From NCBI GenBank assembly GCA_004212155.1, contig RXIG01000002.1, forward strand, positions 1-64,000: a DNA stretch of 64,000 nt. Reading direction: 5' to 3'. The translations under genes and the position numbers were made by a program. Of this stretch, positions 4,032 through 12,547 are shown one piece after another. The notes beneath the pieces are model-generated. The model was not told the origin of the DNA. It saw only the letters and a list, made by a program, of their open reading frames with translations, and ran no database searches. The DNA comes from an archaeon. Its GTDB lineage: Archaea; Methanobacteriota_B; Thermococci; Methanofastidiosales; NM3. Position 1 is the first letter of the stretch; each line of letters opens with the position of its first letter.

Positions 4032-4913
4032 TCATTGTTGCGGTGTGGCGATTTCCTCTTCGTCGAGGAAATGGAGGTAGAGCGATGCGCTGACAAGGTC
4101 TGCCGAACCCCCGGGGCTGATGTTGCGCTTCTCGCACACATCGTTGAACTCGCTGATCATACGCATGCCCCCCTGTGTCAGGACGCCGCCCGCTTCGATG
4201 ACCTCGCGTGCCGTATCCTTGACCATCTCATAGGTGTCAAGGCCGCAGCGCGAGATGACGTTGGTGTCCTCCACGGTGGTCATGAGCGCGAAGAGAGCCT
4301 GGAGGATGGCATCGTTGATGGTGCCGCCGCGACCGAGCACGTCACGTATCGCGGGAATCCCCATGCCCGTGACCGAGGGAAGGCCTCGCTCGACCTCGCC
4401 CCGTATGCCCGTGATGCCGTGTTCAAGGTAGAGCTTCTCCCCCTTGGTGAGCCCGTGGCCATGCGGGGAGGAGCCAAGAGTGCCAAGCTCCCGCTCAACG
4501 ATGCCGTCCGTTATGTCTGCGACGGTCGCGGTGATGGCTTGCACCGTGTGGTCCCCTGACCGCATCGCCCGTCCCGATGCGCCAAGGAGGAGGTAGAAGA
4601 GGAAGACAAGTCCCTTTTGCGTGTTGACGCCCGATGTGACCTCGAACATGCGCCGCTCGGTCAGGATGCCGCGCTCACGAAGGATGGGAAGCAGCGATCG
4701 TGCATCGCCCGTGTGCTCGTACCCCATCACGGCCACATCCCTGAACCCCTGGCTCAGGACGGCGGAGCTGCGTAGGAAGAGCGAGTAGTCCATGTCCCTG
4801 TGCGCACCGCGCGTGAACGGCGTCACTAGACCGGGTTTCGGATGGCACGATACCTCGAGCAGGATGCTGCGCGTTGCAAGTTCACCGAGCGTGTCTATCG
4901 GGTTCATAGGCAT
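4032..4913 (-). CDS. citG: Triphosphoribosyl-dephospho-CoA synthase (CitG/MdcB/MadG)
   Basis: Motifs PKPGLV, GAHRDMD, GVNTQKG, GIRGE, DTNV and SPGGSADL. Confidence 0.93.
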   Translation of the reverse strand: MPMNPIDTLGELATRSILLEVSCHPKPGLVTPFTRGAHRDMDYSLFLRSSAVLSQGFRDVAVMGYEHTGDARSLLPILRERGILTERRMFEVTSGVNTQKGLVFLFYLLLGASGRAMRSGDHTVQAITATVADITDGIVERELGTLGSSPHGHGLTKGEKLYLEHGITGIRGEVERGLPSVTGMGIPAIRDVLGRGGTINDAILQALFALMTTVEDTNVISRCGLDTYEMVKDTAREVIEAGGVLTQGGMRMISEFNDVCEKRNISPGGSADLVSASLYLHFLDEEEIATPQQ

Positions 4914-5551
4914 TCCTCCGCCAATTCGCGTTCGAGCAGCTCGACGCCGTTGATGCCCTTTGCAAGTACCTGCGGCCCGTTGCCGACGAACTCCTTGAGA
5001 TTGATCGCAAAGCCGGAAGTGAGCTCCACCTCGACATCGATGCGGATGCTAAATGCCTCCTCAAAGGCCCGGGTCGTGTGCGCGAGCTCACCGAGCTCAT
5101 CGCGGCCATACCCTCTGACGATGAGGTCGAGGTCCGACGTGTCGTCGGTGTAGGCAAGCCCCGTAACGGCCTCGAGCGCGGCTGAACCCCACACCCCCAG
5201 TGGATACGACGCGGAAAACTCAGAGAGCGCCAAAAGCGGGCGCGTCCTGCGCTCATAGCTCATATGTGGCACCTCATAGGGGCGAATGGCGCGCGTGATG
5301 CGGCTTCCATGCACGGACGATGCGTAGCGTATGCGGTGCCCGTCCTCCTTGTATGGATAGACGAATCCGACGTAGACCTCCTCGGCCTCGTCGTACCACG
5401 GATCGCCGCTGTGGAGTGCGGACTCCTCCCTGCGTACGATGCCGGGGATCTGCCCCGATGCGATGAGGTCGCGGAAATGGCCTGCGTCAAGCCCCTGAAG
5501 CGCAATGTCCTGCCAGCGTGTGAAGACGAGGTCGTGGCGGTTGAATCGCAT
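4904..5551 (-). CDS. mdcG: Malonate decarboxylase holo-ACP synthase (phosphoribosyl-dephospho-CoA transferase, MdcG/MadK)
   Basis: N-terminal RHDL, PGIVRR and the GVWGS...TGLAY...SDLDL nucleotidyltransferase motif; cluster context. Confidence 0.85.
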   Translation of the reverse strand: MRFNRHDLVFTRWQDIALQGLDAGHFRDLIASGQIPGIVRREESALHSGDPWYDEAEEVYVGFVYPYKEDGHRIRYASSVHGSRITRAIRPYEVPHMSYERRTRPLLALSEFSASYPLGVWGSAALEAVTGLAYTDDTSDLDLIVRGYGRDELGELAHTTRAFEEAFSIRIDVEVELTSGFAINLKEFVGNGPQVLAKGINGVELLERELAEECL

Positions 5552-5555
5552 TGGC

Positions 5556-10300: not shown

Positions 10301-12043
10301 TTACCAATTCCTAAATCGAGTTGGGGCTTCATATAATCCGTCCGACCATCGTACGAGGTCCGCCATGCTCTTTGCTGCTAGCTTCGAGCGCTTTGCGTCG
10401 TTGAACGAGAGATTGAGATCCTCAGGCAGTGACACGATGCCATCCTTCCTGAGCTTCTTGGTCTTGCTCTCCTCGGCCTTCATGCCAAGAGGCGTGTAGC
10501 CGGCAACGGCACAGATGGCGTCCATGCGCTCCTTGAGCGTCTTGCACTTGTGCAGGTATGCGATACCCTCCTCTGTGACGATGTGCGTGAGATTGTCGGC
10601 GTAGATCATCACGGGCGGGATGGCGAACTTTGCCTGCTTTTGCAGCTCGAACGCATCAAGCTTCTCGACGAACACGGGGGACATGCCCTCGCCGAAGGTC
10701 TCGACCATCTGCACGACGAGCTTCCTTCCCCTGTCGATAGGACCGATGAGGTCTTTTCTCATCCCATCCTCTTTCGAGGCCTGCAGCCATCCAGGACTTG
10801 GGTGCCTTCTTCCAGGGGCGTTGCACGCCATGTTCGGGGCGCCGCCAAATCCAGGTATCCTTCCCGCTGTTGCTGCAGCACTGTTGCCGTACTGGTCGAT
10901 CTGCAGCGTCGAGCCGAAGAATGCGTCTATGGCATAGTGTCCGGCAAGCTGTGCCATGACCCTGTTGGAACGCATCGTACCGTCAGGCCCAACGGGGAAT
11001 ATGTCGGGCTTTGTCATGAGATAGTTTTCCATGCCGACCTCGCTGCCAAACGGCATCATGGTCTTTACCCATCCCGTCTCTATCGCAGGGATCATCGTCG
11101 GGTGCGGGTTGAGCGCCCAGTGGCTGCAAATGTTTCCCTTCATGCCCATCTCTTCACCGAAGGTCGGGAGAAGGAGCTCCACTGCCGCCGTGTTGAAGCC
11201 GATGCCGTGATTGAGCGTCTTGATCTTGTACTTGTCGTAGATGCCGACAAGCGAGAGCATGGCAATGAATATCTGTGATTCCGTGATGAGTCCCGGGTCC
11301 CGGGTAAAGAGCGGCTCGATGTAGTATGGTTCGTCGGTGGCTATGACGAAGTCGACCCATTCGGCCGGTATGTCGACCCTGGGTACTTTGTCGACGACCT
11401 CGTTCACCTGTGCGATGACGATGCCGTTCCTGAACTTGCTGGCCTCGACGACGGCTGGCGTTTCCTCTGTGTTGAATCCCGTGTAGAGATTGCCGTTCTT
11501 GTCAGCTACGTTTGCCGCGACAAGCGAGACCTTTGGCACCAGGTCAAGGTACATGCGGCACAAGAGTTCGACGTAGGTATGGATGGCGCCGATGTTGATC
11601 TTGCCCTCCATGACCATAGTGGCGAGCTCCGAGGCAACGGGTCCGGAATAACAGAAGTCGACTTTCGTGGCGATGCCCTTTTCGAAGACCTTCAGGTGGT
11701 CCGACAATGCGAGGGCCGACTGAAGCATGTGAAGGTTGTTGACCTTCGTCTTGTCCAATTTGGTGAGACATGCTGCGAGGAAGTCTGCCTGTTTTTGGTT
11801 GTCACCCTCGATGTAGACCCGGTCTCCGGGCCTCAATACTGCCTCGAGGAGCGCAACACAATCGGATGCGTCGACGACCTTCGTTCCAGCTTTCCGGAAC
11901 GACTTCGCGTCGACCATGCGCTTTCGTGTGTCCTCACCGGACTTGTCCCATCCTTTCTTGGCCTCTTCGATCTTCTTGTCCTTCTTGCTTACGGCCTTGC
12001 TGGGTGAGAAGAATATGTCTTTTACAAGGTTTATCTCTTCCAT
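10301..12043 (-). CDS. mdcA: Malonate decarboxylase alpha subunit (acetyl-ACP:malonate ACP transferase, MdcA/MadA)
   Basis: Motifs [64 protein letters not shown] and [10 protein letters not shown]-terminal PTRFRNW; alternative GTG start at 12064. Confidence 0.95.
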
Positions 12044-12070
12044 TTGATCACGTTCCTGTGACACCCAGCT

Positions 12071-12547
12071 CTAGAGAGGCTCAAGCTCAATCAGTACGTC
12101 TCCTGTTTTGACAATCTCTTCGTTTTCAACAAGAATCTTGGACAACTTGGCCTTCTTAGGAGCGGTAACCTCGTTGAACAGTTTCATGGCCTCGACGAGA
12201 CCAACGACCTGACCTGCCTCAACGATGTCGCCCTCTTTTGGCAGTGGCTCGCGGTCAACTGTCGTACCGGGGTGGACGTAGGCCACACCAGGCGTCGGGG
12301 CGGTAAGCTGAATAACGTTGGTAGAAGCTGCGGGTTCGGCCGGCTTTGCCGGTGCAGCTGCCTCTTCCTCCGCTTCCTCCTCTGCTGGAAGCGAGACTTG
12401 AGGCTGTGGAGCGGCTGCCGCGGGGGCGGCGCCACCGGATGGGGATACAGTCCTGATTTCGACTGAATCCTTTCGTACAATCAATTCTGCAATTTTGTTT
12501 TTCTTACAAGCTTCAAGGATAGCTATCAAAGATTCCAAGTCTAACAT
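12071..12547 (-). CDS. Biotin carboxyl carrier protein (AccB/MadF-like)
   Basis: EAMKLFNEV biotinylation motif, Ala/Pro/Glu-rich linker and AccB-like N-terminus; GGAGGG RBS. Confidence 0.92.
   Translation of the reverse strand: MLDLESLIAILEACKKNKIAELIVRKDSVEIRTVSPSGGAAPAAAAPQPQVSLPAEEEAEEEAAAPAKPAEPAASTNVIQLTAPTPGVAYVHPGTTVDREPLPKEGDIVEAGQVVGLVEAMKLFNEVTAPKKAKLSKILVENEEIVKTGDVLIELEPL

Follow-up and report, generated by a model that had tools for sequence, protein, structure and literature searches.

This report concerns a cluster of nine genes in a 64,000-nt stretch of archaeal DNA, which is called the window and is meant at its full length throughout. The cluster runs from position 4032 to 12547 on the minus strand and resembles the operons for malonate decarboxylase, with a complete biotin carboxylase (BC) gene, here BC1, placed among the mad genes. 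In the order of transcription the open reading frames (ORFs) encode a biotin carboxyl carrier protein (BCCP1), MadA, BC1, an acyl carrier protein (ACP), MadC, MadD, a MadH-type protein, MdcG and CitG. All nine point in one direction, an ORF check found every reading frame unbroken, and the spacing between them ranges from an overlap of 10 nt to a gap of 65 nt. The names of its closest homologues place the organism in the Methanofastidiosia. Judged from its genes, the system would be a soluble, ATP-coupled derivative of the Mad-type decarboxylase, in which BC1 and BCCP1 stand in place of the Na+-pumping carboxybiotin decarboxylase. For the direction of net flux we lean, with somewhat less than even confidence, towards carboxylation, which would make the cluster a soluble, ATP-driven acetyl-ACP/acetate carboxylase.

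An earlier reading of the same DNA (the sequence-only reading) had described nine co-oriented genes in this order with intact motifs and short gaps, and had noted that the madA-E-C-D-H-K order is kept, with a complete BC gene between madA and the ACP gene. Both descriptions hold. The ORFs lie where that reading had placed them, their products match the expected Pfam and NCBIfam models (TIGR00514 in the case of BC1), and the motifs were recognized by eye.

Conservation of the inserted gene and absence of a sodium pump

Related loci were collected with an alignment of 19 MadH-type proteins. Of the 207 loci in genomes and the 315 in metagenomes, the best 80 of each were taken, and the proteins of the cluster were mapped onto them by tblastn; some loci occur in both sets, which cannot be treated as independent samples. 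Loci with a MadH at least 70% identical were classed as archaeal-type (19 genome and 18 metagenome) and 61 genome and 62 metagenome loci as bacterial-type. Those in which both madA and the ACP gene are present were informative for the position of the BC gene, namely 14 and 10 archaeal and 55 and 49 bacterial loci. Tabulating genomes and metagenomes for a BC gene near madA bore out the insertion first seen in the single cluster: all 24 informative archaeal loci have the gene between madA and the ACP gene (14/14 genome, 10/10 metagenome), and none of the 104 informative bacterial loci does (0/55 and 0/49). In the archaeal loci the distance from madA to the ACP gene is constant at 1377–1379 nt. 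Furthermore, tblastn gave no BC-like match longer than 200 aa anywhere in the 61 and 62 bacterial loci, flanks included. A beta/MadB gene is present in 52 of the 55 bacterial genome loci with madA, and MadM in 47 of the 61 bacterial genome loci; in the 37 archaeal-type loci, MadL, MadM and classical MadB gave no tblastn match. The same gene order is found in L029–L032 and in all archaeal loci of sufficient length; chance alone would not preserve it to this extent.

Few proteins of the cluster are as well conserved as BC1. Its archaeal orthologues are 79–84% identical, compared with 63–75% for BCCP1 and 42–59% for MdcG and CitG. In a collection of 5.8 billion proteins, the homologues of BC1 pass from this group at 79–84%, whose named members are all Methanofastidiosia, straight to ordinary bacterial AccC at 61–66%, and the search found no close bacterial ‘mad-linked’ clade of BCs between them. 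Among the 133 genomes that sample the phylum, MdcA is confined to two families, occurring in 7/7 genomes of the window's own family and in 17/17 of Methanofastidiosum.

The genome from which the window comes (1.49 Mb, 89.8% complete) has no match to OAD_beta (PF03977), the beta subunit of the Na+ pump, and neither has any of the seven genomes of its family (0/7; 77–96% complete). No tblastn match to MadL, MadM, MadB or MadF was found in this genome, with the MadB of Rhodobacter capsulatus among the queries, and there was no match to MdcH (Acyl_transf_1, PF00698). The MadM family PF03818 was also without a match in it, in a search whose control was silent too. The earlier statement that the cluster lacks MadB/OadB, MadLM and MdcH therefore extends, in the OAD_beta, tblastn and PF00698 searches, to the whole genome. 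A madB or oadB gene elsewhere, considered earlier as a possible true partner of the carrier, is likewise missing throughout the window's family. Across the order, OAD_beta is found in 0/7 genomes of this family, in 17/17 of Methanofastidiosum, and in 3/6 and 4/4 of two families that lack Mad. The beta gene of Methanofastidiosum is separated from the Mad cluster by about 5.5 kb and is on the opposite strand, in an operon of MmdA, OadG, BCCP, beta, BCCP-like and CoA-transferase genes, and its product is 67–68% identical to the beta of Mad-less relatives as against 56–61% to the bacterial betas linked to Mad. This beta is unlikely to be a hidden MadB, given its Mmd-like operon, its strand and its closeness to the Mad-less relatives. 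From the distribution of OAD_beta, the operon context and the identities of the betas, it follows that the Na+ pump neither co-occurs nor is co-inherited with the Mad cluster.

The genome holds exactly two BC genes, two biotinyl domains and three Carboxyl_trans matches (PccB, MadC and MadD), all between window positions 109 and 12547, and PYC_OADA has no match in it (PycB/OadA is found in 0/7 genomes of the family). One of the carboxyltransferase sets is PccB–BCCP2–BC2. In the 348-nt spacer between CitG and PccB, a T-run after CitG is followed by a TTTATATA box before PccB (both by eye), and because of these two elements PccB–BCCP2–BC2 looks like a separate unit. Since the genome has two BCs, two BCCPs and two carboxyltransferase sets, of which this is one, MadC and MadD are by elimination the only free (unshared) client for BC1 and BCCP1. 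The sequence-only reading had joined BC, BCCP and MadCD into one soluble cycle, and the genome-wide inventory supports that part better than before; the acetate carboxylase activity it assigned to the cycle is something that we, too, only infer. A prediction of the BC1–BCCP1 complex (score 0.00, mark 0.32) gives no evidence on binding in either direction.

BirA-like and BioY-like genes are found elsewhere in the genome. A CbiQ/EcfT-type transmembrane protein and two ATP-binding cassette ATPases, encoded at window positions 22668–25113 on the minus strand, make up the energising module of an energy-coupling factor transporter, and together with the BioY-like gene on another contig this module may provide a route for biotin uptake. 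Methylmalonyl-CoA mutase was not found in the window's genome, and the product of PccB could be methylmalonyl-CoA or malonyl-CoA.

Relation to known malonate decarboxylases

Two types of malonate decarboxylase serve for comparison, the biotin-dependent Mad type of Malonomonas rubra (EC 7.2.4.4), whose mechanism is summarised in the available text of PMC8085960, and the Mdc type of Klebsiella, Pseudomonas and Acinetobacter, represented here by locus L033 of Niallia. The best plasmid match to the MadA of the window lies in the pRCB133 cluster of R. capsulatus, which is annotated as mdcB, madB, biotin ligase, mdcA, mdcC, beta, gamma, AMP-binding protein, mdcG, a 69-aa biotin protein, madL, madM and BioY. 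Compared with this Mad cluster, MadA, ACP, MadC, MadD, the MadH-type protein, MdcG and CitG of the window are 59, 41, 50, 49, 48, 34 and 40% identical, and for the MadH-type protein the match is to the ‘AMP-binding protein’ in the madH position and extends over 366 aa. In the Niallia locus the values for MadC and MadD are 37% and 38%, and Niallia has no counterpart of the 370-aa MadH-type protein. Because MadC, MadD and the MadH-type protein are nearer to R. capsulatus than to Niallia, and because the 370-aa protein lacks a Niallia counterpart, these comparisons assign the cluster to the biotin-dependent Mad lineage and not to the Mdc type.

By the same comparisons the 370-aa gene can be identified as the madH-position gene. 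It is orthologous to the gene in that position in more than 100 Mad loci (the sequence of M. rubra MadH itself was not compared), and its product, for which 548 homologues were found, sits at the same position in all Mad-type loci. Proteins of this type are given as PF27502 in a precomputed Pfam column, a family absent from the copy of Pfam used here, and some sources label them ‘acyl carrier protein’, apparently a misnomer. Names are also a poor guide for MadC and MadD. NCBIfam names both after the ‘biotin-independent’ type with scores above the cut-offs, but these models do not discriminate, because the R. capsulatus genes, which belong to a genuinely biotin-dependent cluster, bear the same annotation.

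With the Mad type the cluster shares the A-E-C-D-H-K order, a CitG of the MadG type and a separate biotin carrier. It differs in having neither MadB nor MadLM, no birA among its genes, a 158-aa AccB-like carrier upstream of madA in place of the 69-aa MadF, and a BC gene between madA and the ACP gene. Homologues of MdcA, ACP, the beta and gamma subunits, MdcG and MdcB/CitG are common to the cluster and the Mdc type, from which the cluster differs in lacking MdcH and in having a biotin carrier and a MadH-type gene. The cluster also resembles the multi-subunit biotin carboxylases, such as AccA/D–AccB–AccC and the archaeal PccB–BCCP2–BC2, in having a BC, a BCCP and a carboxyltransferase of the crotonase fold (PF01039 in MadC and MadD). 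In the window system, however, the carboxyl group would be accepted by an acetyl thioester on a dedicated ACP, whose arm derives from dephospho-CoA, rather than by an acyl-CoA, and a transferase (MadA) would release the free acid.

Biotin enzymes are known in pairs that differ by a swap between a beta subunit and a BC, namely oxaloacetate decarboxylase and pyruvate carboxylase, and methylmalonyl-CoA decarboxylase and propionyl-CoA carboxylase. The same modular logic applies to the cluster, in that a carboxyltransferase and its carrier can be coupled either to a Na+ pump, as a decarboxylase, or to a BC, as a carboxylase. ATP-driven carboxylase counterparts are well known for three of the four families of Na+-pumping biotin decarboxylases; for the malonate system we know of no BC-coupled partner that has been described. 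By analogy, the operon in the window is a natural candidate for this missing ATP-driven partner.

The origin of the cluster was approached with a tree of concatenated MadA, MadC, MadD and MadH from 66 loci (FastTree, LG+gamma; loci without any one of the four proteins were left out). The archaeal clade is monophyletic in this tree (support 1.0), and the archaea, two Verrucomicrobiota loci and two Bacillota loci stand apart from the classical MadB/MadF/MadLM type, again with a support of 1.0. A sister relationship between the archaea and the verrucomicrobial clusters has a support of only 0.38 and is not claimed. The four bacterial loci (L054 and L068 from Verrucomicrobiota, L101 and L114 from Bacillota) have the carrier upstream of madA, the order BCCP-A-E-C-D-H(-K-G), no MadLM in the locus and no BC, and they appear as a third bacterial Mad architecture. 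A beta gene adjoins the carrier in L054, L101 and L114; L068 starts at the carrier, so that a beta gene could not be seen there. The beta proteins of L054 and L101 scored as a generic Na+-decarboxylase beta (TIGR01109, 487–514 bits) rather than as MadB, and the AccB-like N-terminal domain of BCCP1 is also present on the verrucomicrobial carriers. The simplest history would be that a bacterial cluster passed to the ancestor of the two Methanofastidiosales families and that its beta subunit was replaced by an AccC of bacterial type. A further arrangement was seen in L107, from a metagenome-assembled genome of Desulfovibrionaceae, which has the order A-G-E-C-D-H-K and in which no beta/MadB, BC or carrier was detected in 19 kb.

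Direction of the reaction and competing readings

According to the Mad scheme in the available text of PMC8085960, the ACP is primed, MadA exchanges acetyl for malonyl groups, and CO2 passes between malonyl-ACP and biotin through MadCD. A carboxylating version of these steps can be proposed for the cluster. CitG and MdcG would put the phosphoribosyl-dephospho-CoA arm onto the ACP, and the MadH-type ligase would prime this arm with acetate. BC1 would carboxylate the biotin of BCCP1 using ATP and bicarbonate, MadC and MadD would transfer the carboxyl group to acetyl-S-ACP to give malonyl-S-ACP, and MadA would swap the malonyl group for acetate and so free malonate. The net reaction would be acetate + HCO3- + ATP -> malonate + ADP + Pi, with no need for CoA. 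That BC1 loads BCCP1, that MadCD uses this carrier, the direction of flux and any use of malonate are all matters that we infer from the genes.

A soluble, BC-coupled system is favoured because the BC insertion is fixed, BC1 is well conserved and the pump is gone, and because the proteins belong, by their identities and their place in the tree, to the biotin-dependent lineage in a genome with BirA-like and BioY-like genes. To our knowledge every characterised enzyme with a BC consumes ATP in vivo, and the exchange of a beta subunit for a BC turns the oxaloacetate and methylmalonyl-CoA decarboxylases into carboxylases; both points favour carboxylation here. It is also favoured because no malonate carrier was found and because surroundings high in CO2 and acetate with little malonate, which are assumed, would push the reaction that way. 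The presence of the operon throughout two families with small genomes fits a core rather than an accessory function and is a further reason for preferring this direction.

Several points weigh against the proposed carboxylase. All characterised Mad and Mdc systems that we know of are catabolic, and no downstream use for free malonate was found in the window's genome. In the search for such a sink, AcsA had no match above the cut-off in this genome. The 1.5-Mb genome has five AOR (AFOR_N) paralogues, on contigs C1, C7 (two), C23 and C20 (108227–108796); these are only permissive for the reduction of acids, and a reduction to malonate semialdehyde is speculation. The AccB-like N-terminus of BCCP1 was rejected as proof of binding to a BC, since verrucomicrobial carriers have this domain too, next to a beta subunit and with no BC. 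MadLM is missing from the bacterial beta-subunit loci L054, L101 and L114 as well as from the archaea. In Methanofastidiosum, BC1 is the only BC (16/17 genomes, one match each) and a PycB/OadA-like protein is encoded elsewhere in the genome, where BC1 may serve a second client. Finally, thermodynamics leaves the direction unfixed, as the coupled reaction is near equilibrium.

This last point rests on the tables in the available text of PMC8085960, which put malonate decarboxylation at -44 +/- 7 kJ/mol and ATP hydrolysis at -44 +/- 1 kJ/mol, each at 1 mM. Because the two energies are equal, the coupled reaction comes to 0 +/- 7 kJ/mol at 1 mM. The sequence-only reading had put ATP synthesis by a reversed BC last on energetic grounds, and with these values that argument is weaker than it was stated. 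An older standard value for malonate decarboxylation, -17.4 kJ/mol, would favour carboxylation more and leave ATP formation with a clear deficit. The same complex could thus be considered in reverse, as an ATP-forming malonate decarboxylase with substrate-level phosphorylation in place of a Na+ gradient. MadA would load malonate onto the ACP, MadCD would pass the carboxyl group to BCCP1, and BC1 would run backwards, converting carboxybiotin, ADP and Pi to biotin, HCO3- and ATP. We regard this as rather unlikely, though as the main alternative. All known Mad/Mdc systems decarboxylate malonate, the benefit to the cell would be obvious, and the window's family has no Na+ decarboxylase of any kind, so that the BC is the only possible energy-conserving exit. 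In the available text of PMC6052691, which cites Nobu 2016, WSA2/Methanofastidiosa are proposed to use malonate as a carbon source, and in that of PMC8085960 formyl-tetrahydrofolate synthetase (+5 kJ/mol) contributes to ATP formation in one purine fermenter. M. rubra, on the other hand, needs about three decarboxylations per ATP according to the same part of PMC8085960. A high ratio of malonate to acetate would be needed, and the high CO2 and acetate with trace malonate assumed for digesters and reservoirs push the opposite way; nor was a malonate carrier found in the window's genome. No enzyme with a BC that makes ATP in vivo is known to us, and none was found in the literature search. The claim that this complex would be the first case of substrate-level phosphorylation by a reversed biotin carboxylase, and would give a methyl-reducing methanogen additional energy, seems to us unlikely.

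Two other readings keep the mad genes as a decarboxylase and give the biotin genes another task. In one, carboxybiotin formed from malonate on BCCP1 would be handed to another carboxyltransferase, either PccB or, in Methanofastidiosum, an MmdA-like or PycB-like protein; ATP would be saved, and BC1 would load the carrier only when malonate is short. The neighbourhood is suggestive, as PccB–BCCP2–BC2 follows the cluster immediately on the same strand, both in the window and in L030, L037, L039, L052 and L149, and the MmdA/OadG/BCCP/beta operon lies about 5.5 kb away in Methanofastidiosum. However, each neighbouring carboxyltransferase owns a carrier, the spacer resembles by eye a terminator followed by a separate promoter, and a BC inside the operon is not required by such a model. 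The neighbour also differs between the two Mad-bearing families while BC1 stays fixed, being the ATP-dependent PccB–BC2 set in the window's family and the MmdA/OadG/BCCP/beta operon, with a family-III CoA-transferase, in Methanofastidiosum. Such a transcarboxylase is therefore considered improbable. In the other reading, a bacterial accBC pair entered the operon and works in biotin carboxylation generally, for instance as PycA, with MadA, MadE, MadC and MadD forming an ordinary decarboxylase from which CO2 is lost without an energy-coupled partner. BC1 is indeed a typical bacterial AccC, 61–66% identical to many bacterial AccC proteins, in Methanofastidiosum it is the only BC beside the PycB/OadA-like protein, and MadC and MadD score above the cut-offs of the ‘biotin-independent’ models. 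Against this, MadC and MadD are nearer to the biotin-dependent type, and the R. capsulatus genes share the label. In the window's family, where PycB/OadA is found in 0/7 genomes and PccB is served by BC2 and BCCP2, BC1 and BCCP1 would be left without a client. Moreover, in 24/24 loci madA separates the genes for BC1 and BCCP1 and both are frame-coupled to the mad genes, and we hold a passenger role to be improbable.

If the favoured acetate carboxylase is what the cluster encodes, it would offer a CoA-free route from acetate and CO2 to a C3 diacid at the cost of one ATP, relevant to carbon assimilation without the known CO2-fixation pathways and to malonate production. If the complex decarboxylates, it would represent a new way of making ATP. 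In either direction, the nine proteins would be soluble and open to expression and assay.

Gene features, earlier reports and occurrence

The matches of the cluster proteins to Pfam and NCBIfam are near full length, apart from the weakly matched 370-aa protein (Table 1).

Table 1. Positions in the window and supporting matches of the Mad cluster, its upstream region and the second biotin set.
Feature	Position	Strand	Evidence
Upstream intergenic region, putative promoter and ribosome-binding site	12548-12778	-	by eye: A/T-rich stretches; GGAGGG about 8 nt before the BCCP1 ATG
BCCP1, 158-aa AccB-like biotin carboxyl carrier	12071-12547	-	PF00364 Biotin_lipoyl 52.6 bits
MadA/MdcA, acetyl-S-ACP:malonate ACP transferase, alpha subunit	10301-12064	-	PF16957 870 bits; TIGR01110 848.7 (cut-off 789)
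BC1, ATP-grasp biotin carboxylase, bacterial AccC type	8925-10307	-	TIGR00514 722.9 (cut-off 626.5)
MadE/MdcC, acyl carrier protein, delta subunit	8599-8922	-	PF06857 70 bits; TIGR03130 98.5 (cut-off 84.1); SGDLE motif by eye
MadC, carboxyltransferase beta-type subunit	7621-8589	-	NF005530 319 bits; TIGR03133 295.4 (cut-off 278); PF01039 58 bits
MadD, carboxyltransferase gamma-type subunit	6734-7624	-	TIGR03134 246.8 (cut-off 237); PF06833 116.6
MadH-type 370-aa protein, presumed acetate:ACP-SH ligase	5556-6668	-	weak PF00501 (AMP-binding) match only; no NCBIfam match
MdcG/MadK, holo-ACP synthase	4904-5551	-	TIGR03135 100.8 (cut-off 99.7); PF10620 78.5
CitG/MdcB/MadG, triphosphoribosyl-dephospho-CoA synthase	4032-4913	-	PF01874 252 bits; TIGR03125 262.8 and TIGR03132 245.6, both just below cut-off
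PccB-type carboxyltransferase, 524 aa	2109-3683	-	downstream of the Mad cluster
BCCP2, 128 aa	1715-2101	-	second biotin set
BC2, 529 aa	109-1698	-	second biotin set

BCCP1 consists of an N-terminal domain, an Ala/Pro-rich linker and a biotinyl domain with an EAMKL motif, read by eye. Its alignment to TIGR00531 spans positions 3–156 of 156 with a score below the cut-off, and the best match in the PDB is the full-length E. coli BCCP (4hr7_B), with the N-terminus covered. BC1, whose start overlaps the stop of madA by 7 nt, has all three BC domains at full length in Pfam and aligns over its full length with solved BCs, among them 2vpq in the PDB with 582 bits over positions 9–449; it is 56% identical to BC2 of the same genome. 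The glycine-rich loop GGGGKGM and the catalytic block were both seen by eye. The functional roles of residues in EAMKL, in GGGGKGM and the catalytic block, and in SGDLE are those generally assigned to these motifs.

The sequence-only reading had also stated that such clusters are known mainly from bacteria. An archaeal malonate system is not wholly new, because the use of malonate as a carbon source by WSA2 had already been proposed, as the available text of PMC6052691 reports with reference to Nobu 2016; no mention of a BC swap was found in the sources covered. The literature search did not turn up a BC-coupled malonate decarboxylase, any ‘acetate carboxylase’ or an account of this archaeal cluster, with Nobu 2016 and its supplements, which may mention the BC, lying outside its scope. 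Lactiplantibacillus pentosus, which is reported to have an mdc cluster and an extra copy of BCCP and BC, was considered and dropped; in the part of the source available, the cluster of strain KCA1 belongs to the Mdc type, carrying mdcH and a membrane protein, and no BC is placed inside it.

The two Mad-bearing families consist of abundant, uncultured methanogens of digesters and oil reservoirs. Contigs from the RNA libraries of two oil-field studies have small word shares (0.11 and 0.06) and contain short, near-identical pieces that fall on CitG, MadC, ACP/BC, the BC/madA junction (10176–10417) and PccB. They give a weak hint of cluster DNA or RNA in oil-field samples; DNA is possible in such libraries, and the pieces do not show transcription. 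Contigs of this kind give no ranking of the genes, and no meaning attaches to the stretches they leave uncovered. An archaeal-type ThrRS gene adjoins the region of the cluster, and a protein resembling Cas4/PD-(D/E)XK nucleases is encoded farther along the window at positions 48607–49431 on the minus strand.

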